Source: a plasmid
Sequence record: NZ_CP069608.1
Reading direction: 5' to 3' (one strand)
Length of the DNA: 64,000 nt
A program made the translations under genes and the position numbers. The notes below the pieces were generated by a model, which worked only from the letters and a program-made list of their open reading frames with translations, did not search any database and had not been told where the DNA came from. This document shows, piece by piece, positions 17,735 through 54,699 of the stretch (positions are counted from its first letter, which is position 1; each line of letters begins with the position of its first letter).

Positions 17735-17759
17735 AATTTCCTCCTTATATTCAAACATT

Positions 17760-22680: not shown

Positions 22681-22682
22681 AC

Positions 22683-24346: not shown

Positions 24347-24364
24347 ATTCAAGGATGTGAAAAT

Positions 24365-24766: not shown

Positions 24767-24779
24767 AGGCGAGGAATCG

Positions 24780-27167
24780 ATGGAAGAACAAAAGCAAAAA
24801 GTGAAACGGGAACTGTTACTTGAAGGATTAGATTGTGCCAACTGTGCTCTTAAAATTGAAAATGGAGTAAAGGGTATACAAGGAGTATCTTCATGTTCTG
24901 TTAACTTTGTTACAAAGACTCTTACCTTAGAGACTGATAATACTCAAGAAGGAACAGTTATATTAGAGGCAAAGAAAAAAGTGAAAACGTTAGAACCTCA
25001 TATCAATATACAAGAAAAAGGGGCTTCTAAAAGAACTGCTGCTGTAAGAACTTTTTATCTAAAAGGATTAGATTGTGCAAATTGCGCAGCCAAAATTGAA
25101 CAAGGAGTAGGAAAACTAGAAGGAGTAACATCTTCTACTGTTGATTTTGTTTCTAAAAAACTAATTATGGAAGCTTCTAACCCAGATCAACTAGATCAAT
25201 TAGAAAATGAAGCTACAAAGATTGTGAAGAAGTTAGAGCCCGAAGTAGAAGTTATATCAGAGTCTCATAAACACGATGACGGTCATGATCATGGTCATGG
25301 TCACGACCATGATCACGGAAGTGAAAATACTAAAAAAATGTTTGCACGATTAGGAATAGGTGCTGTGCTAGCCGGAATCGGAATGTTTGCTCCTGTTTCC
25401 GGAGTGGCAGAGCTTGGATTATTTCTCATTGCTTATCTCATTATAGGTGGAGATATCGTTTTACGAGCTGTTAAAAATATTCTAAGAGGGCAAGTCTTTG
25501 ATGAACATTTTCTTATGGCTTTAGCAACCATCGGAGCATTTGCTATTAAACAGTACCCTGAAGGGGTTGCAGTTATGCTCTTCTACCAAGTGGGAGAATT
25601 ATTCCAAAGCATTGCTGTAAATCGTTCTCGTAAGTCTATTAGCGCATTGATGGATATTCGACCAGATTCTGCGAATGTAAAACGTGGAAGTGAATTCATA
25701 AAAGTTTCTCCAGAAGACGTAAATATAGGCGATATCATCTTGATTAAACCTGGCGAAAAAGTTCCACTAGATGGAAAAGTATTAGTTGGTACTTCAATGA
25801 TGGATACATCAGCTTTAACGGGAGAATCTGTACCACGAGAAGTAGAAGTCGGAAGCGATGTGCTTAGTGGGTTTATTAATAAGAATGGTGTCTTAACCGT
25901 AGAAGTAACAAAAGGATTTGAAGAATCAACCGTATCTAAAATTTTAGAGTTAGTTCAAAATGCAAGTAGTCGAAAAGCACCAACAGAAAACTTCATTACA
26001 AAATTTGCTCGTTATTACACTCCAGTTGTAGTAATTGTGGCAACAGCATTAGCTGTTTTACCACCGTTATTGATTAGTGGTGCTACTTTTTCAGATTGGA
26101 TTTATCGTGCACTAGTATTCTTAGTTATTTCTTGTCCTTGTGCACTTGTCGTTTCAATTCCATTAGGATTCTTTGGAGGAATAGGTGCTGCATCCAAAAC
26201 AGGTATTCTTGTAAAAGGAAGTAACTATTTAGAAGCGTTAAACGACGTTAAATATGTTGTATTTGATAAAACTGGTACATTGACCAAAGGTGTATTTAAA
26301 GTAACAAGTATTCGTCCTAAGTTTAACTTTACAAAAGAACAAGTTTTGGAATATGCAGCTTTAGCTGAAGTTCATTCTAATCATCCAATTGCGGAGTCTA
26401 TCCGCAAGGCATATGGAAAGAAAATAAATGAAGATGCAATACAGGAATATAATGAAATTTCAGGACATGGTATTTCGGTTACAGTAGATGGAAAAGAAAT
26501 TGCAGCTGGAAATGCTAAGCTTATGAACAAAGAACAAATCTCTTTTCAACGACCAGATGAAATTGGAACCATTGTTCATGTCGCTGTAGATAAACAATAC
26601 GCTGGATACATTGTTATTTCAGATGAAGTGAAAGAGGATTCTAATCAAGCCATTCAAGCCTTAAAAGCATTAGGCATTAAAAAGACAGTCATGCTAACTG
26701 GAGATGCGAAAGCAGTTGGAGATTCTGTGGGTAAACAGTTAGGGTTGGATGAAGTTCATGCAGAGTTGTTACCTCAACATAAGGTAGAGAAAATCGAGAA
26801 TTTAGATAAAGAAAAATCTCCAAAAGAAAAAATTATATTTGTAGGCGATGGTATTAACGATACACCTGTTTTAGCACGAGCAGATGTTGGAATTGCCATG
26901 GGGGGACTAGGGTCAGATGCAGCCATTGAGGCAGCAGACATTGTCATTATGACAGATGAGCCTTCTAAAATCCCAACAGCTATTGGTATCGCTAAACGTA
27001 CTCGTCGCATCGTATGGCAAAATATTTTATTTGCCTTGGGAGTTAAAGTTATCTTCTTACTATTAGGTGCATTTGGAATTGCAACCATGTGGGAAGCTGT
27101 CTTTTCAGATGTGGGTGTAACGTTGCTAGCTGTTTTAAATGCCATGCGTGTATTACGTTTGAAATAA
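24780..27167 (+). CDS. Zn/Cd-type heavy-metal P1B ATPase (CadA/ZntA-like), two HMA domains + His-rich linker
   Basis: GLDCANCALKIE, GLDCANCAAKIE; HKHDDGHDHGHGHDHDHG; SCPCALVVS; DKTGTLT; GDGINDTP. Confidence 0.9.
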   Translation: MEEQKQKVKRELLLEGLDCANCALKIENGVKGIQGVSSCSVNFVTKTLTLETDNTQEGTVILEAKKKVKTLEPHINIQEKGASKRTAAVRTFYLKGLDCANCAAKIEQGVGKLEGVTSSTVDFVSKKLIMEASNPDQLDQLENEATKIVKKLEPEVEVISESHKHDDGHDHGHGHDHDHGSENTKKMFARLGIGAVLAGIGMFAPVSGVAELGLFLIAYLIIGGDIVLRAVKNILRGQVFDEHFLMALATIGAFAIKQYPEGVAVMLFYQVGELFQSIAVNRSRKSISALMDIRPDSANVKRGSEFIKVSPEDVNIGDIILIKPGEKVPLDGKVLVGTSMMDTSALTGESVPREVEVGSDVLSGFINKNGVLTVEVTKGFEESTVSKILELVQNASSRKAPTENFITKFARYYTPVVVIVATALAVLPPLLISGATFSDWIYRALVFLVISCPCALVVSIPLGFFGGIGAASKTGILVKGSNYLEALNDVKYVVFDKTGTLTKGVFKVTSIRPKFNFTKEQVLEYAALAEVHSNHPIAESIRKAYGKKINEDAIQEYNEISGHGISVTVDGKEIAAGNAKLMNKEQISFQRPDEIGTIVHVAVDKQYAGYIVISDEVKEDSNQAIQALKALGIKKTVMLTGDAKAVGDSVGKQLGLDEVHAELLPQHKVEKIENLDKEKSPKEKIIFVGDGINDTPVLARADVGIAMGGLGSDAAIEAADIVIMTDEPSKIPTAIGIAKRTRRIVWQNILFALGVKVIFLLLGAFGIATMWEAVFSDVGVTLLAVLNAMRVLRLK

Positions 27168-27175
27168 ATAACAAA

Positions 27176-27215
27176 TAGAGCTGACCAATTTTATACTGGT
27201 CAGCTTTATTTGTTA
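27176..27215 (+). terminator. Hairpin AGCTGACCA-attttatac-TGGTCAGCT + T-rich tail
   Basis: Seen in sequence. Confidence 0.6.
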
Positions 27216-27767
27216 TTTATAACACCTGTAATTAAGAATTTTCTACTACAATCTTTGTCATATTTTGACCACTTTTTCTTCATAACTATTTTATATAATT
27301 GAATATGATCCATGTTGAAAATTAACTACCTATGACTATGAGAAAAATCATTTGATAAAACACGAAGAGAGGCCTTAATCAATGTTAACGCAAAAAATTA
27401 TCATACTGCTATTCATTATAGTATTCACCCTTGCAGCTTTTTCTACTTATCATCTGTTTGTCACTGATTCATATTTTAACCTAAAAACAGCTTTTCGTTT
27501 ACTGAATCATATTCCTTTTAGTTTGACAAACATATTTATTTTAATATTCGGTGTCTTAGGTGGTGTAGTGTTCTTTCTTAAACGATTTAAGGTCAAGAAA
27601 TAAATACTGTAATAAGCGTATTTATGAGGCTTAAAAATGCACCTAAAGTCTTCAAAGGAAGCTTAAAATATAGGAAATAAAAAGTTATGAGCTGTTTTAA
27701 ATTACATGAGGGACATTAATGTAATGTCCCTCACCTTTTTAGTCTTACATTATTTATAACTAATTTA

Positions 27768-29030
27768 TTATTTTGTTTCCTTTAATTCATTATGATTATT
27801 CTTCATTCCCTTTTTTAGAAAAAATAAGAAAGATAAACATAGTCCTGCTCCAATCCCCACTGTTAAATTAGTAAAGACGGTGAGCAAAAAAGTGGTCGTT
27901 AAAATCAATGAATGTGTAGATTTATCTTTTAGAATAGTAGAGAATTGTTCTCTTTTACTTATATTCCATGCTACCATCATTAAAACAGGAGCCAAACTAG
28001 CAAGGGAAACGTATGAAGCATATGGTGCAAGTAATAATAAAACAAATAACACAAATAAAGCATGCGTTATTCCTGCAATAGGTGAAGAGGCGCCATTTTT
28101 TATATTTGTTACAGTCCGTGCTATTTCTCCTGCAGCTGGAATTCCATGAAATAAAGGGGTAACCATATTTACAATTCCCTGACCGATTAACTCCCTTTTG
28201 CTACAATGTTTGGATTGAGTCATTTCGTCCGCAACCCGAGCTGTCAACAAAGATTGCAACCCTACAAGTACTGCTATGACAAAAGATGAGGGTAAGAGAG
28301 TTATCATCTTGTCAACGGTAACTTGGGGGAAATGAGGTATAGGAAGCTGATTTGGAATTTTTCCATAAATTGAACTGATGGTTTCAATTTGACTTGAAAA
28401 GAGCATAGATGAAATTAAACTCGAAAAAAGTATTCCTAACAAATAAGAAACCCCTATAGATTTAGGAAAAAAATGCAGAACAACTAGAATGATTAACAAA
28501 CAAAGGGCTGCAGTAATTACACTATAGATATTCACTCTAGTAAGGTTTTCAAATATTTCTTTCATATTTAGATAGAAGTATTTGGATTTATCAATATTAT
28601 GCAACCCTAACAGATTTGGGATTTGTCCAGTAAAAATAATAACAGCAATACCAGACTGAAAGCCTATAATTGTTGATTGAGGGAAAAACTTAATTAAGCT
28701 TCCTACTTTGCATATTGCAAAGATAATTAGTAAAATACCTGACATAAATCCTGCAATTAAGAGGTTTTCATATCCAAATTGCAACATAATACCTAATAAA
28801 ACCGGAACAAAAGCACCAGTGGGCCCACCAATTTGAAATCGAGAACCTCCAAATATAGAAATTAATAAACCAGCTACAATGGTTGTGTAAAGTCCTGTAA
28901 CAGGGTTTATACCTGAAGCAATAGCAAATCCTAAACCTAACGGAATAGCTATGATACCAACTACAATTCCTGATAGTACGTCCCTTTTTAAATGATCTAC
29001 AGAGTATCCTCTAAGTGTCTCTAATTTCAT
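27768..29030 (-). CDS. SulP/SLC26-family anion permease-like membrane protein (no STAS domain; possibly truncated)
   Basis: N-terminus SGIVVGIIAIPLGLGFAIASGINPVTGLYTTIVAGLLISIFGGSRFQIGGPTGAF typical of SulP; only 420 aa. Confidence 0.6.
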   Translation of the reverse strand: MKLETLRGYSVDHLKRDVLSGIVVGIIAIPLGLGFAIASGINPVTGLYTTIVAGLLISIFGGSRFQIGGPTGAFVPVLLGIMLQFGYENLLIAGFMSGILLIIFAICKVGSLIKFFPQSTIIGFQSGIAVIIFTGQIPNLLGLHNIDKSKYFYLNMKEIFENLTRVNIYSVITAALCLLIILVVLHFFPKSIGVSYLLGILFSSLISSMLFSSQIETISSIYGKIPNQLPIPHFPQVTVDKMITLLPSSFVIAVLVGLQSLLTARVADEMTQSKHCSKRELIGQGIVNMVTPLFHGIPAAGEIARTVTNIKNGASSPIAGITHALFVLFVLLLLAPYASYVSLASLAPVLMMVAWNISKREQFSTILKDKSTHSLILTTTFLLTVFTNLTVGIGAGLCLSFLFFLKKGMKNNHNELKETK

Positions 29031-29603
29031 GGATATATATTACCCTCCTAATTGATAAAGAATCTGCTATAGACTTTATTTTTATGCTGCATTAATAACT
29101 TGTTTTTTATTTTTAAAGGTTAATTCCATATCTAGGTCAGACATTCCAATAATTCCGCAATGTTCATCTTAATTAAAATGTTATAGAACAGACGTTCCGT
29201 TGGTAGGCACATGTATTGAGGTCATAGTATTCAGATTATTGTATTTAACCGTTTTATGTGTTTTACTTCTCCTTTATTAAAATTTTACTATCACAAAACT
29301 CTATCACCTCTCTAAATTTAATTATTAACTACTTAATAATTTAAGAGATAAAATTGAAGAAATGGTGAAGTTTTCTACTTTAGATTCTTTTTACCTATTT
29401 TATTAAAAAGCGCGTCTTCTTACCTAAATAAAAACTTCATAATTTCTTCAAAGTTATAATGTAAAATTTAAAGTAAAATTGAAAATAATTAGTATAGAGG
29501 ATGTAATCTCAAAGTTTAGCAAAATTATAATAGTTTTGTTAGAAATGAACCTACTTTTGCTATAGTAGATTTTATCTTTTAATTGGATGCGGGAGGAACT
29601 TTT

Positions 29604-30302
29604 ATGAAAAAGAAGATATTAATTGTCGATGATGAGTGGAATATGAGGAATTTATTAAAAATTTATTTAAAAGATGAATTTCACGTTATAGAAGCTGATG
29701 ATGGGGGTACAGCTTTATCCCTTATCTATGCAGAACATTTTGACCTTATCATACTGGATATTATGCTACCAAATATAGATGGTTGGAAAATATGTAAAGA
29801 GATAAGAAAAGAAAAAAACACTCCTATCCTCATGTTAACAGCTCGTAACGAATTAAAGGATAAGGTTTATGGACTGGGAATTGGAGCTGATGATTATTTA
29901 GGAAAGCCCTTTGAACCTGATGAGTTAGTTGCTCGAGTAAAATCTTTGTTGAGACGATCATTTATGAATGAAAATCATCTTGAAAATGTTTTAGTATTTG
30001 GAGAACAGTTATTGATTATAAAGACAGATAGTAGAATAGTTTTTGTGAAAGGAGAGAAATTGGATTTGACTCCTAAAGAATATGATGTTTTTTACTTATT
30101 AGCTAAGCAACCTCATCGTTTATTTACAAGGGATGTATTATTAGATGTAGTTTGGGGGCTTAAGGATATAAAAGATGTAAGAACGGTTGATACACACATT
30201 AAAAATATTCGAATAAAGGTAAAACAGAAGATACCCACTTATAATCCTATAAAAACGGTCTGGGGTCTTGGATATAGATTTGACCCAGTAGATGAAGAAT
30301 GA
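29604..30302 (+). CDS. OmpR/PhoB-family response regulator
   Basis: ILIVDDEWNMRNLL...DLIILDIMLP receiver; winged-helix C-terminus ...TVWGLGYRF. Confidence 0.85.
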   Translation: MKKKILIVDDEWNMRNLLKIYLKDEFHVIEADDGGTALSLIYAEHFDLIILDIMLPNIDGWKICKEIRKEKNTPILMLTARNELKDKVYGLGIGADDYLGKPFEPDELVARVKSLLRRSFMNENHLENVLVFGEQLLIIKTDSRIVFVKGEKLDLTPKEYDVFYLLAKQPHRLFTRDVLLDVVWGLKDIKDVRTVDTHIKNIRIKVKQKIPTYNPIKTVWGLGYRFDPVDEE

Positions 30303-31717
30303 TGAGATGGAATAGTATTGTTTTTAAATTAGGACTCACTATTTTTATTATTTTAGTAAGTGTACTCTTACCACTTATTTATGCTATCAACCAGTTATTT
30401 TCTGGTTTCTATTTAAGTGAGAATCACCATCAAGTTGACCGATTAGCTGATAAATACTCTAATATTCTGAAGAGTACAGAAGATCTTGCTTCTCTTACAA
30501 CAGTTGCTAACTTAACAGAAACGGAAATCTGTATTATTGATCAAAAGGGAAAGATTCTATATAGCTCTAATAAAGGTCTCTTTCGCTCAGGTAACCATGT
30601 ATCAAATAAGTTATTACAAACGCTTAATTCAAAACAAACCGTCCAAATAGAATATCAGAACCCGACAAATAACACTAATTACATTGTTTCCGGAAAACCT
30701 CTACGTTTATCAAATAAAGTAAGTGGGGGATTATTAGTGTTTTCAGATGCTGAGCATATAAAAAACTCTGTTCGTCATATGCAATTGTTGTTAGTGGTAT
30801 CTTTAGTTGGAGCCTTGTTTATTGCATTAGGATTTACTTACATTGCCTCAAAGAAACTTGCTTCTCCCCTTCTAGAAATGGAAAAAGTAACACGGGAAGT
30901 AGCTAAAGGAAAATTCTATAATAAAGTAGATGTTTCTTCAAATGATGAAGTAAGGTCCTTAGCTTTAGCTATAAATGATTTAGGCCAAGAATTAGAAAGG
31001 TACAGAAATAGGCAGAGAGATTTCTTTGCTAATATCTCTCATGATTTAAGAACGCCTATCTCTTATATTAAAGGTTACACACAAGTAATTTACGATAAAC
31101 TTTATACAGATGAAAAAGAAAAAGAACAATATTTATCCATTATTATAAATGAAGTGAATCAACTAAATGTATTAATAGACGACCTATTTGAATTGTCTAA
31201 ACTTGAAGGAGGACAATTAGAGCTATATCTAAATTGGATTAATGTTCAAGAATTAATTGAGGGATGTCTCAATAAAGTAAGATTAAAAGCAAAACAGAAG
31301 AAGATACAACTCTCCATACAACTAAAGGATAATATTCCTTATATCTATACAGATGGTGCACGCTTAGAGCAGCTTTTAATGAACATACTAGAGAATGCAA
31401 TACGCTATAACAAGTTAAATGGTCATATAGAGATAAAAGGGTGGATAGAGAAAAAGAAAGTTTATTTATCCATAAAAGATACGGGCGTCGGTATAGCAGA
31501 AGAAGATCTTCCATACATTTTTGAAAGGTTTTATAAAACAGATAAATCTCGGTCAAATCGTTTAGGGAGCACAGGTCTCGGATTGTCAATAGTTAAACAC
31601 CTTGTTTTATTATTAGAAGGAGAAATAAAAGTAAAGAGCACCTTACATAAAGGAACTACTTTTCTTATTACCTTACCCTCTAAAATAAAGGGAGACGTAC
31701 AAGATGAAAAGCTTTAA
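30299..31717 (+). CDS. Sensor histidine kinase (2 TM, HAMP, HisKA, HATPase)
   Basis: ISHDLRTPIS H-box; GTGLGLSIVKHLV G-box; ATGA overlap with the RR gene. Confidence 0.85.
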   Translation: MMRWNSIVFKLGLTIFIILVSVLLPLIYAINQLFSGFYLSENHHQVDRLADKYSNILKSTEDLASLTTVANLTETEICIIDQKGKILYSSNKGLFRSGNHVSNKLLQTLNSKQTVQIEYQNPTNNTNYIVSGKPLRLSNKVSGGLLVFSDAEHIKNSVRHMQLLLVVSLVGALFIALGFTYIASKKLASPLLEMEKVTREVAKGKFYNKVDVSSNDEVRSLALAINDLGQELERYRNRQRDFFANISHDLRTPISYIKGYTQVIYDKLYTDEKEKEQYLSIIINEVNQLNVLIDDLFELSKLEGGQLELYLNWINVQELIEGCLNKVRLKAKQKKIQLSIQLKDNIPYIYTDGARLEQLLMNILENAIRYNKLNGHIEIKGWIEKKKVYLSIKDTGVGIAEEDLPYIFERFYKTDKSRSNRLGSTGLGLSIVKHLVLLLEGEIKVKSTLHKGTTFLITLPSKIKGDVQDEKL

Positions 31718-31889
31718 ACGATATCTTCCACTTTTATTTATTATTTTAGGTATTTTCTGTCTAGTAGCTGTTAGCAACTCTTTATATGTAGATAAGCATT
31801 TTCTTAAAGCGTTAATAGGAATAGTTGTTCTAATGTCCTTTCCTACTCTTTTTCTGTTTATTTATCGTAAGGTAATGAGAAAAAAGTGA
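31704..31889 (+). CDS. Small 2-TM membrane protein overlapping the HK 3' end
   Basis: ORF only. Confidence 0.3.
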   Translation: MKSFKRYLPLLFIILGIFCLVAVSNSLYVDKHFLKALIGIVVLMSFPTLFLFIYRKVMRKK

Positions 31890-32370
31890 AAATTTTATAA
31901 AATATGTTATTTGTCTTCAAAAACTGAATCTGGTTAAGTATGTTCATTAAAAAACAGGATTTTCATTTCTTTTATCTAATTTTATCAAATAAAGATGCAT
32001 AGAGGATCTATTACGTTATTTCCTCTACATATTATCTAACTCAAGGTGAAAGGATGGAATGGCCGAATTTTAATGAAACTGAATTCTCTTAAAAAAGAAC
32101 GACTAAATAAAAATTCCATAAAAGCTATAGATACTTTCTCTGATATGTTTTCTATAGAAGAAAAAAGATGCCCTATAATTGATAAATCCTAATATGCATA
32201 AAAATAAAGTAAATCAAGTACCATTTTAGTTTCTATAATTCTTATCCTTTTTTAAATTTTTATAAAGGTTTTGAAAAATGAACTCGTTTCCCTAATCTTA
32301 TTTAATTTTGGAATCCGTAAAGTGCACCCTCAAAATCAATATATTTGTTTATTAATAGGGGGAAGTAAAA

Positions 32371-33897
32371 GTGAAAAAGAGATTGTTCTCGCTAATGATA
32401 ATATCGTTTCTTCTTTTATGTATATATACCTTTCCAGCCAGCGCTATAGAAAAAGAAAAACGTGAATGGCAAGACGAGACTATGTATTTTTTAATGGTTG
32501 ATCGTTTTAATAATGGTGACACCATGAATGATAAAGAAGTAGACAGGCAAAATCGCCTTGCCTATCAAGGCGGTGATTTTAAGGGTATAGTAGATAAACT
32601 TGATAAACTCAAAGAGATCGGTTTTACTACCATTGTACTTACACCCATTTTTCAAAATGAAAAGGGGGGCTACCATGGCTATTGGATTACCAACTTTTAT
32701 AAGATAAATAAACAATTTGGTTCTATAAAAGAGTTTAAAGATCTTGTGAGCGAAGCTCATGATCGCAATATGAAAGTATTAATTGATTTTCCAGTTACAC
32801 ATGTCAGCACTTCGCATCCTTGGGTAGATGAAAAGGGAAAAGAAAATTGGTTCACAAACAAAAAGGATCCCGTTTCTCAAAAATGGCTCGGAAACATGGC
32901 AGCTTTAAATCTTGAAAATAATGAAACAAAACAGGAGCTAATTAAAGTAGCAAAATGGTGGGTTAAAAATACAAATCTTGACGGCTATTATTTAAGTAAT
33001 GCGTCCGGGGCACCACTTAATTTTTGGAATGACTTTTCAAAAGAAGTAAAAAGAGAAAAAAAAGATCTCTTTTTACTTGGAGAAAGTCAAAAGAAAGATT
33101 TAAAAACGTTAACGGCTTATGAGAAAACAAGACTTGACGGGATAACCTATTCACGTTTGAATAATCCACTACGTCAACAGTTTATAAAACTTAATAAAGA
33201 TTCTAACGAAACGATTGACCTTCTTCAAAAGAAAGAAGAGACATTCGAAAATTCTCGTCTTTCGGCTAACTATTTAGATTCCTATAAAACAGAACGCTTT
33301 ACACGAGATGTAGTGGAAGAAAAAGTATTCCCAGGGGCACGATGGAAAATGGCTTTAACATACTTATATACTATTCCAGGTCTACCCCTTGTTTATTATG
33401 GGTCAGAAATTGCACTTAACGGAGGTGAAGGTGTAGATAATCATCGGACAATGGATTTTCGTGCAGGTAATGAATTAATCGATTACATTACAAAATTGGG
33501 AGAACTCCGCCAGCAATTGCCTGCTTTAACAAGAGGCACGTATGAATCTATTTATAATAAAAAGGGAATGACAGTTTTCAAAAGAGAATATAAAAAAGAA
33601 ACGTTAATTGTAGCTATTAATAACACAAGTAAAACACAGAAGGTAACTATCCCGGTGTCAAAATTCGCCAAAGGCAAAGAGCTGAGGGGACTCTTAGCAG
33701 GAGATCTTGTACGCCCTAACGAGGAAAAGTTTACAATCATATTAGAACGAGAGCAATCTGAAATTTATGCCCTTGCAAAAAAAACCGGAATTAATATTCC
33801 ATTAATTGTAACATTAGCTACTATCTACATTTTTTTCATACTTTTTATTTTCCAGAATAAGAAATATAGACAGCGAGAACGAAAAAAGTCTGCTTGA
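32371..33897 (+). CDS. Secreted GH13 alpha-amylase-family glycoside hydrolase with C-terminal membrane anchor (GTG start)
   Basis: Signal peptide; QGGDFKGIVDKLDKLKEIGFTTIVLTPIF...GYHGYW; C-terminal hydrophobic segment + KKYRQRERKK. Confidence 0.7.
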   Translation: MKKRLFSLMIISFLLLCIYTFPASAIEKEKREWQDETMYFLMVDRFNNGDTMNDKEVDRQNRLAYQGGDFKGIVDKLDKLKEIGFTTIVLTPIFQNEKGGYHGYWITNFYKINKQFGSIKEFKDLVSEAHDRNMKVLIDFPVTHVSTSHPWVDEKGKENWFTNKKDPVSQKWLGNMAALNLENNETKQELIKVAKWWVKNTNLDGYYLSNASGAPLNFWNDFSKEVKREKKDLFLLGESQKKDLKTLTAYEKTRLDGITYSRLNNPLRQQFIKLNKDSNETIDLLQKKEETFENSRLSANYLDSYKTERFTRDVVEEKVFPGARWKMALTYLYTIPGLPLVYYGSEIALNGGEGVDNHRTMDFRAGNELIDYITKLGELRQQLPALTRGTYESIYNKKGMTVFKREYKKETLIVAINNTSKTQKVTIPVSKFAKGKELRGLLAGDLVRPNEEKFTIILEREQSEIYALAKKTGINIPLIVTLATIYIFFILFIFQNKKYRQRERKKSA

Positions 33898-34140
33898 ATT
33901 TTAGAAGTTTTAATTAATAAGGAGAGGAAGATCAAGAATCTTTATATAAAATGATTTTTTTAAGGGGAGAAGATAAAAAAACGGAAAAGCTTTTTCTTGT
34001 TAAGAAGTTTTTCCATTTTTTATCTTATAAATTTAGCCATTAATAATCCCTGTTGTATTTAATTGTTGTCGTTGATTAGAATTAGCTATGATGATTTTGA
34101 ATAGTTAGCTTAAACATACACTTAATTAACTTAAACCTCG

Positions 34141-34302
34141 TCACCTTGGTTTTATTATTTCATCTATTCCTTGTAGCTTGTCTTCATATGTTACCTCTTT
34201 TGAAAAACCTTCTGGAACCCCAACTTCATTTGTAAAACCTTGGGGTGAATTTGTTGCTCCTATATCATAATTTTCAGATAAACCTAACTTTTTTATTACC
34301 AT
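34141..34302 (-). CDS. Possible 53-aa small ORF (MVIKKLGLSENYDIGATNSPQGF...) with GGAGAG RBS
   Basis: RBS spacing good; short. Confidence 0.2.
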   Translation of the reverse strand: MVIKKLGLSENYDIGATNSPQGFTNEVGVPEGFSKEVTYEDKLQGIDEIIKPR

Positions 34303-34653
34303 TCTCATCTCTCCTTTTTGGAATTTATATTATTTAGTTTTAACTGTAAGAGTAAAATAATAGCTGTTAATAATTACTATTTTAAAATATTCTTTTTCCA
34401 ATTTTAGTTAGTTGGATTATAAACTTTTATACCCTCAGCCTTTATTCCCATGTTATACCACAAAAATCTTAATACGGGTATATAAAATAATACAGATACT
34501 ATTAGGATCCGTTTAATAATTGATGTACCTTTATGGAGTTGTATTTGTCAACTTAAAATCCAGCCATTTCGTCATTAAAAACCCAGCCAATTTTCTGCCT
34601 TCATTTATATAATTGGCCGGTTTTTTAATGCTTTTTTTATTCTTCTTTTCGTT

Positions 34654-35439
34654 CTATCTCTGTTCGATTAATTCTTGTTTCTTCAACCATTTCTCTGTCT
34701 CTTTCATGCGGTAGGAGTCACCAATCATATTCACAATATAGGCTTGATGGGTTAAACGATCAATCATAGCTGCTGTCATGACAGGGTCTTGAAAGATTTC
34801 TCCCCATCTTTCAAAGGATAAGTTCGTTGTAATAATGGTTGATTTCTGATTCGCTCGTAATGATAAATGAGTAAACAATAACTCTGCACCTTCTTTATCA
34901 AATGAAATATAGCCCATTTCATCTGCGATGACTAAATCATATTTTTCAAATCGATTCTGAAAAACTCGTAGAGTTCTCTCCGACCTGCATTCCTTTATTT
35001 GGTTGACTAATAAAGGAACCGTTGTAAACCATACCTTATAACCTTCCATACAAGCTTTTATCCCTAAGCCAATTGCCATGTGAGTCTTTCCTGTACCCGC
35101 ATTGCCAGCTAAAATGACATTTCGGCCTTCTCTGATAAAATCTAAGCTCTTTAAAAGTTTAAATTTTTGCTGGGCATCTTTTGATAAATCCTCAGTTGAT
35201 AGATCTTCTAGATATTTCTTATAGGGAAAGTCTGCACGACGGATTCGATTATATTTGGCAGATTCCTGTCTAGAATCCAGTTCTTTTTGAAGTAACTGTC
35301 GTAAGAATTCTTCATAACTGGCATCTGTTTCAACTGATTCTTTAATCACTTCTTCAAAATCCTGACGGATTTTAGGTAATTTGAGCTCTTTGCTTAATGT
35401 ATTAATTTCCTCTACCAATGCTTGCTTAGAAAGTTCCAT
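34654..35439 (-). CDS. istB: IS21-family helper ATPase IstB
   Basis: Walker A GNAGTGKTH; Walker B LVIADEMGY. Confidence 0.9.
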   Translation of the reverse strand: MELSKQALVEEINTLSKELKLPKIRQDFEEVIKESVETDASYEEFLRQLLQKELDSRQESAKYNRIRRADFPYKKYLEDLSTEDLSKDAQQKFKLLKSLDFIREGRNVILAGNAGTGKTHMAIGLGIKACMEGYKVWFTTVPLLVNQIKECRSERTLRVFQNRFEKYDLVIADEMGYISFDKEGAELLFTHLSLRANQKSTIITTNLSFERWGEIFQDPVMTAAMIDRLTHQAYIVNMIGDSYRMKETEKWLKKQELIEQR

Positions 35440-35452
35440 TTACCTGCACCCC

Positions 35453-37045
35453 TTATTGGATAAATTTCGTTTGGAACAGTTGATCATAGGTCTGAAGATG
35501 TTGTTTAGAATAGTGTTCGATATCGATGGTTTTCTGAGATGAATAGTCTGTAGGTAGATGTAGTCCTTCTCTTTGTTTCGCGCAGATTAATTTGATTTTA
35601 TCTGTGGTGATATGGCTAGGATGAAGAGTAGAGAGTTCTTGAATGCTTTTTTCTATCTGTTCGATAGTAATTCCAGACTTAATAAAGTGTATTAACTCTA
35701 TAAAATCCTTAGGGTGAGTGGTATAGTAAGAGTAGTATATTTTCTTTAATTTTGGATTTACCTGTTGTAATGCTGTGCTATCAGCTAATGCACCAGGCTT
35801 TTTTTGTAGGGTATACAAATAATGTTCAAGGTGTAAGCTCCATTCATGATTTCCAGTTTGTCGTGGATGTAAAGCGATTCTCTTTTCCCGATAAAAACAT
35901 TGAATATGATCGCTGTAAATTTTGATCCGAATCATCTCTCCAACTAGATGGTCCGGTACAGAGTAGTAGTTTTGATCAACGATGACAGTTGAATACTTAG
36001 TCACACGTCCATTTATCACTCTTGCTGCATCAAAAGGCGGGGGCGCTACTAATAAATACTTCTTTTCTTCTTTTATTAAGTCGTTTGGCGTCAAACGAGA
36101 TGATGAGTTCTTCTCTTTGTGATTGAGTTTCAAGCAAATTTCATGTAAATAGTGATTTGCTTTTTCTAATGTGTCAAAGGTATCTTGAAAGGCAAATGCC
36201 TTTCTTCTAATCATCTCTACACTTCGCTCTACATGTCCTTTTTCATTTCCACTTGCTGTATTACAGAAACGGTAATGAAATGAATAATAAAGCGAAAGCT
36301 TTATCAGCGCCTCGGTAGGTTCTCTTTCTGTGCCAATAAATCTCTTTACGGCTACTTTCATATTGTCATATACCATGGTGTGAAATACACCGCCAATATC
36401 TTTAAAGAACAACGAATGAGCTTCTTGAAAACATTCCGTTTTTTGTTTTGTAAATAAATAAGCCATTCTAAAGTTACTATAAGCTGACGTAAACGTGGCC
36501 ATTTGTAAGGCCTGTTTTCTGCCATTAATCATTAATTTGACTTCTCCCCAGTCAAATTCGCAAACCTCTCCAGGCGCGTAAGCTCCTTTAATAAATGCTT
36601 CTTTTTTTGTTTTTTCCATTGCTCTTATCGTGCGAAGAACTGTGCTATAACTAATGGTAAATCCTTCGGATTCTAAGGATTCATGAATATCAACAGCTTT
36701 TTTTATTTGCTTCCTTAACCCCTGTTGCTTTTTCTGCACATTTTCTTCTAGATGCATTTGAATACGATGTAAAATCTCTTTAGATAGCTTTCTTTTCTTG
36801 GAATCACGTTTCTTGTATCTTGGGGCCTCTACAATTTCTTGAATAAGTTCACCAGTATCCGCATTTTTATCTTCACTCAGTAATTTGTTCTTCCTCGTCT
36901 CATACTCACGAATATACTTTCCTACTGTTTCTCGGTTAACGCCTACTAAGCTGGCAATCTTTCTCTGAGAATAACCTTCTCGTACGTGCAGTAATATAAT
37001 CTCCTGTTTCTTTTTCAGCGTAATCATCTCCCCAAATTCCCCCAT
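35453..37045 (-). CDS. istA: IS21-family transposase IstA
   Basis: N-terminal HTH (REGYSQRKIASLVGVNRETV); DDE core region. Confidence 0.9.
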   Translation of the reverse strand: MGEFGEMITLKKKQEIILLHVREGYSQRKIASLVGVNRETVGKYIREYETRKNKLLSEDKNADTGELIQEIVEAPRYKKRDSKKRKLSKEILHRIQMHLEENVQKKQQGLRKQIKKAVDIHESLESEGFTISYSTVLRTIRAMEKTKKEAFIKGAYAPGEVCEFDWGEVKLMINGRKQALQMATFTSAYSNFRMAYLFTKQKTECFQEAHSLFFKDIGGVFHTMVYDNMKVAVKRFIGTEREPTEALIKLSLYYSFHYRFCNTASGNEKGHVERSVEMIRRKAFAFQDTFDTLEKANHYLHEICLKLNHKEKNSSSRLTPNDLIKEEKKYLLVAPPPFDAARVINGRVTKYSTVIVDQNYYSVPDHLVGEMIRIKIYSDHIQCFYREKRIALHPRQTGNHEWSLHLEHYLYTLQKKPGALADSTALQQVNPKLKKIYYSYYTTHPKDFIELIHFIKSGITIEQIEKSIQELSTLHPSHITTDKIKLICAKQREGLHLPTDYSSQKTIDIEHYSKQHLQTYDQLFQTKFIQ

Positions 37046-47281: not shown

Positions 47282-48265
47282 ATGTTCAAAAGATTAACAT
47301 TACATAATCTATTCAAACCGTTGTTAACCCTTATTTTAGGAGTAGGTTTATTGGTTTTAAGTGGTTGTAGTAACCTGGTCATCTTAGACCCTAAAGGACC
47401 AGTGGCTAAGATTCAAAGTGATCTTATTATGCTATCAATTCTCTGGATGTTATTAATTATTATCGTTGTTTACGTCTTATTTACCTGGGTTGTTATTAAA
47501 TATCGTAATCGTCCTGGATTTAAAGATAAAGACTATCAACCTAACATGCATGGTAACACAAAGTTGGAGATTATATGGACCATAATTCCAATTATAATTG
47601 TTAGCGCTTTATCGATTCCGACAGTACAAGCATTGTATGAACTGGAAAAACCACCAAAGTCAACACGTGATAAAGACCCAATCGTTATTTACGCTACTTC
47701 AGTTGACTGGAAATGGATATTTAGTTATCCAGAAGAAAATATTGAAACTGTAAATTATTTAAATATCCCAGAAGATCATCCAATTCTTTTCAAAATTACT
47801 TCCGCGGATTCTATGTCTTCCTTGTGGATTCCACAACTCGGTGGTCAAAAGTATGGAATGGCTGGGATGGAAAATAAGTTGTATCTTCAAGCTGATGAAC
47901 CTGGACTCTACAAGGGTAGAAACTCCAACTTTACAGGGGAAGGTTTTGCAAATCAAACCTTTACTGTTTTAGCCCAAAAAGAAAAAGATTATAAGAATTG
48001 GGTAAAAGACACTCAACAAAATGCACCGAAATTAACTGAAAAACAGTATGAGAAATTAATGATGCCTGAAGTAGCTAAGAAGATGACTTTTTCATCTACT
48101 CACTTAAATATCGTAGACCATGCAACATCTTCGGAATATGCATTAAGAGTTCGTGAAAAATATGATGTTTCAGTTAATCCTGAAAAAAAACAAAATACAA
48201 ATGATGATAGCCAAGTAGAAGGCGAATCAAGCTCTAGTTCCCAGCATGGATCGCACTCTAACTAA
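47282..48265 (+). CDS. qoxA: Cytochrome aa3 quinol oxidase subunit II
   Basis: Lipoprotein signal (LSGCS); two TM; size and order as B. subtilis QoxA; lacks the CuA Cys pair, consistent with a quinol oxidase. Confidence 0.85.
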
Positions 48266-48282
48266 GAAAGGAGGAACCCAAG

Positions 48283-50238
48283 ATGATTGATTTTATTAAG
48301 AATAATTTAATTCTGAATAATCCGATGATTATTGGAGCTAATATATCAATTTTACTCACTGTTATCGGAATTCTATTTGTTTTAACGTACTTTAAAAAAT
48401 GGAAATGGCTATGGACGGAATGGCTCACAACAGTTGATCATAAAAGATTAGGGATTCTGTACATTATTTCAGCTATTCTAATGCTGTTCCGTGGCGGTGT
48501 AGATGCATTATTAATGAGAGCCCAACTAACATTACCTAATTCTAAGGTTCTAACTTCTGAACATTATAATGAAATTTTCACCACACATGGTACCATTATG
48601 ATTATTTTTATGGCTATGCCATTTTTAATTGGAATAATGAATGTAGTGGTTCCATTGCAAATCGGTGCTAGAGATGTAGCTTATCCATATCTCAACGCGT
48701 TAAGCTTCTGGACATTTTTCTTTGGAGCAATGTTATTTAACATTTCTTTTGTATTTGGCGGATCACCAGACGCTGGATGGACAAACTATGCACCTTTAGC
48801 AAATGAGGGAAGTCCTGGACCAGGTACAAATTATTATTTAATTGGTCTTCAGCTTTCTGGAATCGGCACTTTATTAACAGGAATTAACTTTATTGTTACT
48901 ATTTTAAAAATGCGGGCGCCTGGTATGACATTATTTCGTATGCCTATGTTCACATGGACATCGTTAATTACAGCGTTTATTATCGTATTCGCATTTCCTG
49001 TATTAACTGTCACATTAGCATTAATGACATTTGACCGATTATTTGGAACCCATTTCTTTACTTTAATGGACGGTGGGATGCCAATGCTTTGGGCCAACCT
49101 CTTTTGGATTTGGGGACATCCTGAGGTATATATTGTAATTCTTCCGGCGTTTGGTATCTTCTCTGAAGTTATCTCGACCTTTGCCAAAAAAACATTGTTT
49201 GGTTATAAAGCAATGATTATTTCCATTGTTTCTATTTCTGCCCTAAGTTTCCTTGTTTGGGTTCACCATTTCTTTACAATGGGCGCTAGTGCAGGAGTTA
49301 ACTCTATTTTTTCAATCTCAACGATGGCCATCGCCATTCCAACTGGAATTAAAATCTTTAACTGGTTGGTCACTCTTTATAAGGGAAAGATTGAATTTAC
49401 TACGGCCATGCTTTGGTCACTTGCGTTCATTCCAATTTTTGTGATAGGTGGAGTAACGGGTGTTATGCTGGGAATGGCAGCAGCTGACTACCAATACCAT
49501 AATACGTACTTCCTTGTTGCTCACTTCCATTACACATTAATAGCTGGAACTGTGTTTGCCTGTTTCTCAGGTCTGATTTTCTGGTATCCAAAAATGTTTG
49601 GACATAAATTAAATGAACGAATTGGTAAATGGAGTTTTTGGTTCTTTGCAATTGGCTTTAATATCTGTTTCTTACCTCAGTTCTTCTTAGGGTTTGCAGG
49701 TATGCCAAGGCGTGTTTATACGTATGGTGCAGAAGAGGGATGGACTGGATTAAATGTTCTTTCCACGATTGGCGCTGTAGGTATGGCAATTGGTTTTGCG
49801 ATTCTTGTTTATAATATTTACTACAGCTTCCGTTATGCTAAAAGAGAAACTAGTGGAGATGCGTGGAATGGACGTACTCTTGAATGGGCAACAACCACTG
49901 CTGTTGCACCGCATTATAACTTTGCCCAGATCCCTGTAGTTAAAGGGTTAGATGCTTTTTGGCTCATGAAAGAAGAGCAAAAGAAAGGTAAGAAGCAAAA
50001 GGTTGAGTATAAGAAAATTCATATGCCTAGTAATTCGGGGCGACCATTTATTATGTCATCATTCTTCTTTGTTTCTGGGTTTGGGCTAGTCTTTGAACTA
50101 TGGTGGATGGCAATATTAGGAGTTATTGGTGTATTTGCATGTATGATAATTCGTTCAATCCGTTCAAATGAAGAGGACAAAGGCTATTATGTCAGTGTAG
50201 AAGAAATTAAAAATACGGAACAGAAGGTTTCATTATGA
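48283..50238 (+). CDS. qoxB: Cytochrome aa3 quinol oxidase subunit I
   Basis: Haem-copper oxidase subunit I motifs (WFFGHPEVY-like [18 protein letters not shown]). Confidence 0.9.
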
Positions 50239-50251
50239 GGAGGCGTAAAAT

Positions 50252-50881
50252 ATGGCACATGGACATGATGATCATTATATGAGTGCTGACACGCCCTTAG
50301 AATATCAGTCTGAAACAGGTAGATTAAATATATTTGGATTCTGGATTTTCTTGGGGGCGGAAGTTGCTTTATTTGCCACCTTATTTGCAACTTATTTTAC
50401 TCTTAGTGGTAGCACAGCAGGTGGACCATTGCCTGGAGAGTTATTTGAATTAAAAGGCGTATTGATTATGACGTTCCTATTGCTAACAAGTAGTTTTACT
50501 TGTGGCTTAGCAATCCATGCAATGAGAAGAAACAATCTTACATCTATGATAGTATGGATGATTATTACATTACTGTTCGGTTTAGGTTTTATATATATGG
50601 AGATCAGTGAGTTCATTTTATATGTGGAAGAAGGAGCTTCAATTGGGACAAATGCATTTTGGTCTGCGTTCTTTTTAATAACCGCAACACACGGTCTTCA
50701 CGTCACAATTGGTATCGGTTGGATGATCTTAATTCTTATTGAGTCAATTAAATCAGGTTTAACACCTAATACTGCTAAAAAGGTATTTATATCTAGTTTA
50801 TACTGGCACTTTTTAGACTTTGTATGGATTTTTATCTTCACGGGTGTTTATTTATTAGGGATGGTGGCATATAATGGCTAG
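50252..50881 (+). CDS. qoxC: Cytochrome aa3 quinol oxidase subunit III
   Basis: Five TM; size and position. Confidence 0.85.
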   Translation: MAHGHDDHYMSADTPLEYQSETGRLNIFGFWIFLGAEVALFATLFATYFTLSGSTAGGPLPGELFELKGVLIMTFLLLTSSFTCGLAIHAMRRNNLTSMIVWMIITLLFGLGFIYMEISEFILYVEEGASIGTNAFWSAFFLITATHGLHVTIGIGWMILILIESIKSGLTPNTAKKVFISSLYWHFLDFVWIFIFTGVYLLGMVAYNG

Positions 50882-51173
50882 TAAATCAGCTAATAATCAT
50901 TTTCCATGGTCTCATGTAATTGGTTTTATGCTTTCAATTGCTTTAACACTTATAGCCTTATGGGTAGGGTTATATATGAATTTGCCGTTTAATACAGTTG
51001 TTATTATTGTATTTATTCTTGCATTCATTCAAGCTGCTATCCAGCTGTATATGTTTATGCACATGACCGAAAGTAAAAATGGTATTTGGCAATCTGGAAA
51101 TATGCTTTTTGCAGCTTTTATAGCAATAGTCATCGTTGCAGGTACTATATGGGTAATGGGTTCTATGCATTAG
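50874..51173 (+). CDS. qoxD: Cytochrome aa3 quinol oxidase subunit IV
   Basis: Three TM; overlaps the qoxC stop. Confidence 0.75.
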   Translation: MASKSANNHFPWSHVIGFMLSIALTLIALWVGLYMNLPFNTVVIIVFILAFIQAAIQLYMFMHMTESKNGIWQSGNMLFAAFIAIVIVAGTIWVMGSMH

Positions 51174-51441
51174 TAACATAATAATGAAGTATAACAAAAT
51201 TAAAAATGATAAATAATTACCTAATTAGCAGCATGGATGAGTACAGCTACTATTAATTTTCATTTTCCTGATTGAGTAGGCGTGTGTGCAGCTCTATATC
51301 CTTCCAATAGTAGCGACGTCTTCTTTCCATGCTCTATTTGTTATCTATATATTAGGTTCTTATTTTACTGCTCGTTATATTACGAACAGAAAAGTCCTGA
51401 AGAAGAAACTGACACAAACAGCATAAGATTTAATAAATAAA

Positions 51442-51475
51442 AAAAGAGTAAACTTCCAAGTTTGCTCTTTTTTAT
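51442..51475 (+). terminator. Hairpin AGAGTAAACTT-cca-AGTTTGCTCT + T-rich tail downstream of the qox operon
   Basis: Seen in sequence; one mismatch. Confidence 0.5.
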
Positions 51476-51685
51476 TTATATGACATTTATTCAACATATG
51501 AAAGATATCTACTTAACTATAAGGAAACATTAGTATGGCTAGTTCCTTTAATAATTATTGAAGAAAGTTAATGGCTAAGCTTTCATGTCTTATTTTAATT
51601 TTATTACATTTTAAGATATACAGCATATTTAAAGCTATCAGAATTATTAGTGCCAATGGTTTTTCTTCTTTTAATGCTTATTATA

Positions 51686-52200
51686 GTGCGACAAGAAGTC
51701 GCTTTTATATGGTGTGGCTCACGCCACTAGTTTAGACGCAAAAACTATCCCCGTCCAAAACTGCGTTTCTGGTAACGGATTCGTGGGTTGCATGCGGAAA
51801 TGCGGAAACAGATAGTCAATGCACGACTCGGAACACTGCTAAGGGAAGATGAGTATGGTGAACATTAGTGAAGGTTTGTATGCTTCGTAAGAGTTAGCCC
51901 AGGATCATGCACAGATTTGCTTGGGAATTGGCAAGAGGAAAAGTAGATTTATAATGCTGGTGTAGCGCTTCCCGTATCTTGCCCAGAGTAAAGAACCTAC
52001 CTAACCTTGTTGTATCTATAAGATGCAGAACTTGGTAAGCCCTCTGTCATCTGGATAAACTGTAGGGAGATTGTAAGATTAAAATGTATGACAGAGGGTA
52101 AAGGATACGAGATAAAGCAAATGCCGTTGTTTCAAAAGGGAATCGCACGGTTCTTAGGGGAGACAGGGGCAATGATGCCCCTAACTTACCCGACTTAACC
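51686..52200 (+). ncRNA. Candidate ORF-less group II intron-like structured RNA (starts GUGCG; 3' end with DV-like GCCGUUGUUUC...GGAAUCGCACGGUUC and DVI-like hairpin with GGGGCAAUGAUGCCCC)
   Basis: GC-enriched, no ORF, many GAAA/GNRA-type loops; boundaries approximate. Confidence 0.3.
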
Positions 52201-52675
52201 ATATAGATAAACGACAACAAGAAAATAAAACACAAACCTCTAAAAATAGAGATTTGTGTTTTATTTAGATGATTTCTTCAAATAACTGATGATTAGATTA
52301 TATAATAACTTACTAAAAAAATAAAGCTTAGTATTTGATTATGTGAAATACTTATTCAAATTCGAAAGAGAACCATTATCTAAAAAAAAGAGGTCTGCAT
52401 CAGTTTTTTTGTTTAGTTCTTGTAAAGTTCATACTTTTTTATAAAAATTCCCATACATTCCAAGCTTCAATTGCATAATTTAAAATAATTGAAGAAAAAA
52501 GGAGTAGGGTCATTATGAATTTAAAGATAAATAATGAAGATGATTTTAAAAATATTCTACAATTCACCGGAAAATGTTTAGAAAAGATTGGAGATATGTT
52601 TATAAACAAAGCTTTTGTCAACAACGTTTTAAATTTACCCAATATCAGCGAAAACAAATTCCCCGTTATAAACGG

Positions 52676-53440
52676 TTAAGTAGTCAACTTGGCAGGATAA
52701 ATTCCTGCCTTTTTCTTTTCGCGTAGACGATATGAATCTCCCTTTATATTAAATGTAATCGCATGATGAAGAAGCCGATCTAATACAGCTGTTGCCAACA
52801 CTTCATCTCCAAAGACGTTTCCCCAATCAAGATAGGATTTATTTGATGTTAAAACCATTGCTCCTTTCTCATACCGTTTAGATACAACTTGAAAGAAAAC
52901 ATTTGCTGTGAGTTCGTCAAATGGAAAATATCCTACTTCATCTATAATTAAAATATCTGGCCGGCTCCATCGATTGACAAGCCGATGGAGGGTACCTTTC
53001 TCATTTGCCTTTCGGCATTGTTCTACTAAGTCATCTGAGGTTAAGAAGAGAGCTGTATATCCTTTGGTAATGGCCTCTACCGCGAAAGAAATAGCTAAAT
53101 GCGTTTTCCCTACACCAGGTGGACCAAGTAAAATTCGATTTTCTCCATTCGAGATAAATCGGCACGTAAGTGTCTCTTTTACTTGTTTCTCACTAAGACT
53201 TGGTTGAAATGTAAAATCAAAGTCGTGAATCGTTTTGTTATAAGGGAGTTTTGCCTGTTTCATTCGTTTTTCCAATTGTCCCGACTCTTGCTTCTCTATT
53301 TCCTGTAAAACGATGGTGTGAAGAAATTCAGAATATGATACATTATCTTTAGATACGTCTTCTAATACACTATCTAGTTGGTTAGCTGTATGGTGCCAAC
53401 CAAGCTTCCTTAGCCGGTCAATTAAGAGCTCATTCATCAT
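52676..53440 (-). CDS. istB: IS21-family helper ATPase IstB
   Basis: GPPGVGKTHLA Walker A; ILIIDEVGY Walker B. Confidence 0.9.
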   Translation of the reverse strand: MMNELLIDRLRKLGWHHTANQLDSVLEDVSKDNVSYSEFLHTIVLQEIEKQESGQLEKRMKQAKLPYNKTIHDFDFTFQPSLSEKQVKETLTCRFISNGENRILLGPPGVGKTHLAISFAVEAITKGYTALFLTSDDLVEQCRKANEKGTLHRLVNRWSRPDILIIDEVGYFPFDELTANVFFQVVSKRYEKGAMVLTSNKSYLDWGNVFGDEVLATAVLDRLLHHAITFNIKGDSYRLREKKKAGIYPAKLTT

Positions 53441-54699
53441 ACATGTTCACCTTCTTCTAATGCTGCGTAAGCAGCGAGAGGACGTTTCTCTACTTTAGGG
53501 GATGGGTCTTGTGATTGAGAAACATCGGTCGCCAAACCTTCAATGTGTTTCTCTTTCTGACCCATCTCTGTCTTCTGTAAACCTTGATAATGTTCCATCC
53601 GGATATGTGTCGTTGCGTTTCCAGTAAGAATAGGATGTTTTGCTATACATTCATGTTCATCGTATATTTCTATATGATGATTTAATGTTTCCTTTACTTT
53701 AACGGTCTGTCCAACATAACGATAAGGAACGGAGTATTGTTTTCCCCCGTATGATATAAAACAATCTCGACTAACCTCTCTATGCTCCCAATGGGAAGTA
53801 GGAAATAAAGGTTTTTCCCCCCAGGCCTTCAGGAACTTCTGTTCCTGCTCAAACCTCTTAAAGGGTGCTTCATTTGTTGTCTGATTTTCCTTTTTATTAG
53901 CCACCTGATTTAACCATTCTTTTATATCCTCGTTTAACGCATTCAGTGTTGGTTCATGTTTTCTTTGAAAAAAGTTATCTTTTAAATACTTTACCGTTCT
54001 TTCTACTTTCCCTTTTGTTTGAGGCCTCCTTGGACGGCAGGCCTTTGGCACAATTCCATAGTAAGCCAAGAAATCTTCGAATTTCCGATTAAAACGAACT
54101 TCCACTGGGCTGTGCTTGATCACCACTGTTTTCATGTTATCGTAAAGGATTTGGTCTGGTATCCCATTAAAATAAGAGAAAGCATTCATATGGCATTTCA
54201 TTAAAGTTTCTAGGTTCATATTCGTTGTGAATTCTACATATTTCATCCGGGAATAACCCAAAATCATGATAAATCCATATACATCTTGCAGCACATCATT
54301 TACTAAGTACTTCCCGACATACGCCCAGTCCATTTGAGCTTGCTTTCCAGGTGGCGTTTCAAACCGTAAGGTTGCCTGTTTCTTTGGTTGTTGGCGAAGA
54401 GGACGAACAAAATCTCTTAAGATTGTGAGCTGACCTTCATAACCCATTGCTTGTATTTCTTCTAATAAGACTACGCAATTAGTGGTACCCTCTTTAAGCC
54501 GTCCAAGTATGTACGGTTTGTAAGGGGTTAATTTGCTTTCTTTTTTCTGTTTACTTCCTTTACGCTTAGGTAACTGGTTATCTTTTAGGTATTTACTGAC
54601 TGTTTTGCGATCGAAACCCGTTGCTTCTGCAATAGCTGTTTTCGTCCAACCTTTTTGAAACAATTCTCTAATCATAAAAAACTCCCCAATCTTCAGCAC
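53437..54699 (-). CDS. istA: IS21-family transposase IstA
   Basis: HTH (GWTKTAIAEATGFDRKTV); DDE integrase core. Confidence 0.85.
   Translation of the reverse strand: MLKIGEFFMIRELFQKGWTKTAIAEATGFDRKTVSKYLKDNQLPKRKGSKQKKESKLTPYKPYILGRLKEGTTNCVVLLEEIQAMGYEGQLTILRDFVRPLRQQPKKQATLRFETPPGKQAQMDWAYVGKYLVNDVLQDVYGFIMILGYSRMKYVEFTTNMNLETLMKCHMNAFSYFNGIPDQILYDNMKTVVIKHSPVEVRFNRKFEDFLAYYGIVPKACRPRRPQTKGKVERTVKYLKDNFFQRKHEPTLNALNEDIKEWLNQVANKKENQTTNEAPFKRFEQEQKFLKAWGEKPLFPTSHWEHREVSRDCFISYGGKQYSVPYRYVGQTVKVKETLNHHIEIYDEHECIAKHPILTGNATTHIRMEHYQGLQKTEMGQKEKHIEGLATDVSQSQDPSPKVEKRPLAAYAALEEGEHV

Follow-up and report, generated by a model that had tools for sequence, protein, structure and literature searches.

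A probable relic of an ORF-less group II intron in a dif-like site of a Priestia megaterium plasmid

The window, that is, the whole stretch of DNA analyzed here, comprises 64,000 nt of sequence record NZ_CP069608.1. It belongs to a plasmid of Priestia megaterium; its QoxB and M42 peptidase are identical to proteins recorded under the name "(plasmid) [Priestia megaterium]". The qoxABCD genes occupy 47282–51173. Downstream of them, placed between the terminator-like hairpin that follows qoxD and a bidirectional terminator-like hairpin, lies a 509-nt segment at 51686–52194 of the plus strand, referred to below as the relic or the window copy (Table 1). An IS21 element, consisting of istA (with an rve domain) and istB, is found at 52676–54699 on the minus strand. 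This element is polymorphic: it is absent from GCA_047758515.1 (L001), one of six other assemblies that share the relic, and that assembly has an intact 75-aa ORF where the window has a truncated 54-aa ORF (52515–52679).

A first-pass annotation of the region, made from the letters alone, had described it as ORF-less and richer in GC than its AT-rich surroundings. Both descriptions hold. The ORFs overlapping 51686–52200 are just 54, 33, 36 and 62 aa long, two of them mostly in the flanks, and the GC content is 0.42–0.47 over 51700–52199 vs 0.23–0.29 in the flanks. As for the GAAA/GNRA-capped stems of that description, stems with GUAA and GAAA caps are present. Both strands fold better than shuffled sequences (folding-energy z = −3.8 for the plus strand and −4.75 for the minus strand). 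At gathering score, no Rfam family, including OLE, ROOL, GOLLD, RNase P, tmRNA and others, has a match in the 64-kb window, in agreement with the earlier impression that the region is unlike RNase P or tmRNA. At E ≤ 10, matches in 51400–52450 are at chance level only, and Intron_gpII (RF00029) finds none in the window copy. The best match of the group-II-D1D4 models in the window reaches 12.4 bits, vs a gathering score of 34. A search of a phage collection with the relic gave no match.

The identity of the relic emerges from its homologs on other plasmids. A blastn search of plasmids returned 183 records (Priestia 108, Bacillus 68), with 88–91% identity in two pieces that together span ~790 bp. 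With a full-length element as the query, 301 records and 516 places are found. The family is present in dozens of Priestia plasmid records, at up to 4–5 places per record. When the relic is compared with an independent plasmid element, 458 nt align at 90.8% and 61 nt at 95% identity (E = 0), and thus the likeness is not due to chance; identity to full-length copies is ~91%. The Priestia matches had raised the idea of cross-genus transfer, which was dropped, as the window itself is a Priestia plasmid. In a three-way alignment, similarity begins exactly at GTGCG and ends exactly at ...CTTACCCGAC (CCCGAC), beyond which the flanks are unrelated. The start proposed in the first-pass annotation, at the GUGCG sequence of 51686–51690, is therefore confirmed. 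Its end at 52200 is not: the relic ends at 52194, and 52195–52200 are 3′ flank.

Full-length members of the family are 775 nt long and ORF-less, and they match the group II intron model that misses the window copy. For example, the 775-nt copy at L011:4015–4789 scores 42 bits with Intron_gpII (E 1.6e-6). RF00029 scores range from 42 to 64 bits for ORF-less copies and from 62 to 70 bits for reverse transcriptase (RT)-encoding relatives (gathering score 40). Thus, the covariance-model search that had been suggested finds group II structure in the full-length copies but not in the window copy. None of the group-II-D1D4-1 to -7 models has a match at gathering score in the full-length or RT-encoding relatives, and the Rfam D1–D4 models seem not to cover the lineage. 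In an alignment of domains V and VI (DV–DVI) from 14 relatives and the window, pairing holds in 96.9% of cells, vs 38–53% with the partners slid, and 11 of the 27 pairs have changed on both sides, this count being made on a structure derived from the same sequences and the Rfam model. The compensatory changes, together with the group II RT/maturase that the nearest relatives carry in domain IV (see below), uphold the group II assignment. The family has two DV variants, whose upper helices are distinguished by compensatory changes. One variant, which has an additional bulged A, reaches no more than 42 bits with RF00029. One family copy (L116 3631–4455) contains a 48-nt tandem duplication covering DV.

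We conclude with high confidence that 51686–52194 is an inactivated, internally deleted copy of a non-autonomous, that is, ORF-less, group II intron. The first-pass annotation had suggested a miniature or degenerate ORF-less group II intron; "degenerate" is the part that stands, given end-to-end homology with the 775-nt element that matches Intron_gpII. The same annotation had offered an unrelated large ncRNA as the alternative. A region that is ORF-less, GC-rich and structured might indeed be an ncRNA resembling OLE, ROOL or GOLLD, or else a degraded protein-coding gene. The probability of either is negligible. No Rfam family matches, and both are refuted by homology, over the whole length, to a family of mobile introns whose ends are precise at numerous unrelated loci; moreover, no annotated feature lies under the plasmid copies. 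A pseudogene was also rejected on the short ORFs and on the flanks: when these are joined, stop codons close all frames. It follows that no gene was interrupted and that the insertion is intergenic.

Table 1. Positions of intron, target-site and flanking features in the window.
Feature	Position	Strand	Basis
5′ splice-site consensus GUGCG	51686–51690	+	direct reading; agrees with GUGYG
EBS1 UAUAAU, predicted domain I terminal loop	51950–51955	+	alignment of copies
IBS1 ATTATA, last 6 nt of 5′ flank	51680–51685	+	complementary to window EBS1
UAUGG half of 11-nt tetraloop receptor (zeta)	51854–51858	+	sequence; pairs with CCUAAC in RNAalifold consensus
CCUAAC half of tetraloop receptor (zeta)	52000–52005	+	sequence; RNAalifold consensus
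Deletion junction, microhomology AAAGGGAA	52135–52142	+	8-nt overlap of two blast pieces
Chimeric DV-like hairpin	52123–52153	+	alignment of copies
Domain VI, hairpin GGGGCAATGATGCCCC, bulged branch-point A52188	52157–52191	+	aligned to DVI of full-length Rfam matches
Split dif-like site, 5′ part: left arm TCTTCTTTTAA, spacer TGCTTA, TTATA of right arm	51664–51685	+	
Split dif-like site, 3′ part of right arm, TTAACC	52195–52200	+	
Terminator-like hairpin after qoxD	51440–51473	+	
Bidirectional terminator-like hairpin downstream of insertion site	52223–52266	both	

The internal deletion explains why the alignment falls into two pieces. Element positions q1–458 correspond to 51686–52142 (90.8%) and q716–776 to 52135–52195 (95%). 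In the full-length copies, an upstream hairpin contains GAAAG(G/A)GAAC, and the DV loop contains GAAAGGGAC. As the two pieces overlap at the shared sequence, ~265 nt were lost from the window copy between two AAAGGGA microhomologies. Judged from the RNAalifold consensus and the ORF position, the deletion removed DIV entirely, most of the putative DIII, and from DV the 5′ strand with its AGC triad, the DII/DIII boundaries being RNAalifold predictions.

The consequence is a hairpin of mixed descent. Its 5′ half comes from the upstream GAAA hairpin (putative DIII) and its 3′ half, 52143–52153 (TCGCACGGTTC), from the true DV. It has UGC in place of AGC and an AAAA loop in place of GAAA, and in the DV register the window row supplies the unpaired cells of the alignment, failing most DV pairs. 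The full-length relatives possess a DV of the usual description, i.e., a ~34-nt hairpin with an AGC triad, a 2-nt bulge and a GNRA loop; the window copy does not. The ~34-nt hairpin that had been likened to domain V is thus this deletion chimera. In contrast, the DVI-like hairpin of the first-pass annotation is borne out. DVI is intact in the window copy: A52188 lies seven nt from the 3′ end and GAC (52192–52194) follows the hairpin, in keeping with the group II pattern of a bulged A at 7–8 nt from a 3′ end in AY, and across the family 99.4% of DVI cells are paired, with 6 pairs changed on both sides. Upstream of the deletion, decay is by substitution. In DI–DII, 43 of 433 columns differ from the family consensus (~10%), and 9 of 122 pairs are broken, vs 0–4 in apparently intact copies and 14 in another decayed copy.

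With DV missing, the window copy almost certainly cannot splice. It may be asked whether it is instead a functional miniature intron, in which DI and DVI still sponsor splicing, with the chimeric hairpin serving as DV or with a DV supplied in trans. DI, EBS1/IBS1, the zeta receptor and DVI with its branch-point A are retained, the chimera has a DV-like outline, and Euglena group III introns have been described as DI plus DVI remnants (PMC4424553). Nevertheless, we consider a functional miniature extremely unlikely. The chimera carries the wrong triad and loop and fails most DV pairs; RF00029 finds no match at E ≤ 10; and nine DI/DII pairs are broken. In addition, the insertion interrupts no gene and splicing is therefore not selected for, and the short form occurs on no other PLSDB plasmid.

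Another proposal is that the relic, whatever its intron origin, has been co-opted as a structured ncRNA or as a 3′-UTR element of the qox operon. In favor of this proposal, the relic shares the strand of qox, has a terminator-like hairpin on either side, folds better than shuffled sequences and is 100% identical in the window and the six other assemblies. However, the flanks are identical in the seven assemblies as well, which points to one recent plasmid lineage and makes the identity uninformative on selection. Furthermore, the substitutions break helixes, the hairpin at 51440–51473 separates the relic from qoxD, and no good promoter lies ahead of it. We regard co-option as very unlikely and retain the reading of an inactivated intron copy.

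The origin of the ORF-less family can be traced to introns that encode an RT. The 17-mer at the start of the relic, GTGCGACAAGAAGTCGC, stands at the 5′ end of more than 120 intron loci in many phyla, a Methanosarcinales MAG and Bacteroidota among them, and many of these have a DV ~2.0–2.4 kb downstream. The closest RT-encoding relatives are ltrA introns of P. megaterium plasmids (pBM700, L135; L136) and of B. cereus-group plasmids (L075, L143–L145). Ribozyme identity to them is 76–80% over q1–638 plus q694–775, and the ORF sits between q638 and q694. The encoded protein contains the domains RVT_N, RVT_1 and GIIM; its TIGR04416 score is 357 bits (cutoff 300). No RT/maturase ORF is found in domain IV of the window copy or of the 775-nt family. 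Yet the 775-nt element retains the ATG and about the first 37 nt of the RT ORF, and so the family descends, as a delta-ORF form, from RT-encoding ltrA introns that reside on plasmids of this kind. As leads to the subclass (CL1/IIB1 or bacterial class B), B.me.I1 has been listed as class B and B.me.I2 as CL1B (PMC3552965).

No helper encoding an RT turned up in the 64-kb window, whose sole RT is that of another, unrelated group II intron located at the left edge. This intron lies on the minus strand at 1–957 and is cut by the window edge. For the part present there is no Rfam or Pfam match. Its 5′ end, GTGCGCCCATAAGGGC, is at 957, and its RT-like ORF, which runs off position 1, is 38% identical to the L075 IEP over 79 aa (E 1e-9).

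In bacteria, ORF-less introns are described as rare; as a rule they are accompanied by relatives with an RT that may act in trans (PMC4424553). Several have RT-encoding relatives of their own: B.c.I7 on pE33L466, B.th.I2 on pAW63 and the introns in Trichodesmium dnaN (PMC2504315, PMC1196294, PMC4424553). Like the present family, these introns have lost the RT ORF internally, keeping only its first and last bases, exist as several near-identical copies, and have RT-encoding relatives in the same gene pool that could act in trans. The systems differ in scale, since the published introns are described as rare, with a handful of copies, whereas the Priestia family is found in dozens of plasmid records. 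The window copy differs from them in being additionally truncated and inactive. The ORF-less family is a natural system for trans-mobilization. The window element itself would be no more than the inert remains of a familiar type of mobile element; more can be learned from its relatives.

The insertion point of the family is not random. We compared 22 distinct 5′ flanks and found positions −22 to −12 and −5 to +6 to be conserved and −11 to −6 to be variable. Every copy examined is inserted at TTATG^T(T/A)AA within a 28-bp site, which is reconstituted as ACTTCC(T/G)A(T/G)AA-N6-TTATG^TTAACT, the right-arm consensus being TTATGTTAACT. This site, with its two conserved 11-bp arms and variable 6-bp spacer, is close to dif of B. 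subtilis, ACTTCCTAGAA TATATA TTATGTAAACT; dif of E. coli is GGTGCGCATAA TGTATA TTATGTTAAAT (PMC3025954). When 51686–52194 is removed in silico, the only relaxed dif-like match in 64 kb is the one restored at 51664, TCTTCTTTTAA TGCTTA TTATA^TTAACC, which matches the dif-like arms at 8/11 and 9/11 positions. The expected number of relaxed matches in 64 kb as a whole is 0.85; one that falls in register at the junction is therefore not attributed to chance.

Within the site, the IBS1 bases and the EBS1 of the intron appear to have changed in step. Other copies have CAUAAU with ATTATG, vs UAUAAU with ATTATA in the window; 21 of the 22 other flanks end in G at −1, and the copies with a readable EBS1 have CAUAAU. 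The EBS1–IBS1 pairing is thus predicted to be preserved in the window, through a compensatory change that is a single event. A candidate EBS2/IBS2 pairing joins UAUUGG (q239–244) to CCGAUA at −18 to −13; it leaves a 6-nt gap to IBS1 and fits poorly in the window. Of the sigma-70-like matches in the region, the best one, TTGGCA-16-TATAAT (11/12, 51928–51955), coincides with the EBS1 loop and is probably a by-product of the EBS1 sequence rather than a promoter.

Dif-like sites number dozens on Priestia plasmids. Unoccupied ones are abundant there, with 10–11 strict matches per 50 kb vs 0.1–0.15 expected, and many more relaxed ones. Arrays of sites are found on L134 (pBM600, 17156–35614), L142, L141 and L135. 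The unoccupied sites are followed by a TGTATAnnATATACAGC palindrome and then by a bidirectional terminator, a layout that the bidirectional terminator downstream of the window site matches. On the criteria of arms and spacer, we suggest that the 28-bp sites are candidate Xer sites. A tyrosine recombinase is annotated beside rep on pBM600.

The unoccupied sites also bear on where the intron ends. After GAC, the 3′ flanks of the copies share ~27 nt of weaker similarity. In B.c.I4-type introns, splicing occurs 53–56 nt downstream of DVI, beyond a two-stem extension with a tetraloop receptor (PMC2691827). A 3′ extension of this type was rejected here, as the same stretch is present at unoccupied sites and hence is part of the target, not of the intron. 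The conserved flank motif was also considered as a promoter, but its spacings suit neither sigma-A nor the sporulation sigma factors. A Bacillus sp. contig with two intron copies has a match to RF01691 (Bacillus-plasmid RNA; 55 bits, L113 4417–4472, minus strand). This RNA, near one copy, is unrelated to the dif-like target site.

The RT-encoding relatives occupy the same point of dif-like sites in the B. cereus group (L143, L144, L145) and in Priestia (L135, L136, L083), at TTATG^TAAAT or TTATG^TTAAC. An example is the pNCcld site, ACTTCCTATAT CGAGAA TTATG^TAAATA. These observations lead us to a tentative proposal, to which we assign slightly less than even probability: a Bacillaceae group II intron lineage homes specifically into Xer/dif-like sites, at TTATG^T(T/A)AA in the XerD-type arm. 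The lineage would comprise RT-encoding introns like B.c.I1 and a prolific ORF-less derivative. The invariable position in the dif-like site suggests a target specialization that we did not find in the literature searched, where no link between group II introns and dif/Xer was encountered.

B.c.I1 is an En-less, RT-encoding intron of ~2.36 kb that resides in 3′ untranslated or intergenic regions, with a terminator following (Tourasse and Kolstø, PMC2504315). Conservation of its homing site extends from −22 to +11, and the site was described as being of "unknown nature" (PMC2504315). The B. cereus-group relatives found here have the 17-nt 5′ end in common, show 76% ribozyme identity and are inserted at TTATG^TAAAT. 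The likeness of the RT-encoding relatives to B.c.I1 is by published description, and the window element differs in being the ORF-less Priestia derivative. If the proposed homing is correct, it would account for the 33-bp homing site of B.c.I1, the nature and function of which were given as unknown (PMC2504315).

The history of the window copy can be pictured as follows. The intron RNA would have been spliced and mobilized by an RT acting in trans. Guided by the pairing of EBS1 UAUAAU with AUUAUA, it would have reverse-spliced into the top strand of the dif-like site and then been copied into DNA. The deletion would be later than the insertion, with slippage or recombination at the microhomology as its cause. 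Lacking DV, the RNA would be unable to catalyze splicing, and the relic would now be inert DNA between the qox operon terminator and the bidirectional terminator, still keeping the dif-like site split in two. More generally, under the homing proposal each intron insertion would split, and so freeze, a recombination site.

Group IIC-attC introns are a lineage specialized on integron attC sites (PMC3001079). Like the lineage proposed here, they are specialized on a site-specific-recombination site. They have IIC ribozymes, recognize a DNA hairpin and use very short EBS/IBS pairings. In contrast, the present family is ~700 nt long without the ORF and has a 6-nt EBS1, a GUGCGAC 5′ end and a dif-like target of 11-6-11 organization.

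A second parallel is provided by the IS1202 family, in which ISAjo2 targets pdif/dif sites, and by the dif modules of Acinetobacter (PMC10132070, PMC6449649). Like the intron, ISAjo2 is always placed in one position and one orientation with respect to Xer sites. However, it is a DNA transposon that lands 5 bp outside the XerC arm, whereas the intron inserts inside the XerD-type arm. Acinetobacter plasmids have many Xer sites bounding small gene modules, which recalls the many dif-like sites of Priestia plasmids. No report of dif modules in Bacillus or Priestia was found in the literature, and we suggest that the abundant Xer-like sites may organize the accessory genes of Priestia plasmids into modules. 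The arrangements differ in that Acinetobacter pdif sites bound modules, while successive sites on pBM600 are in one orientation. The pBM600 sites at 17–36 kb have 1–2 genes between neighbors, and five of them have the spacer AATCCA. Priestia site arrays are likewise mostly in one orientation, with several sites sharing a spacer, a layout like that of dif modules or of a cassette array.
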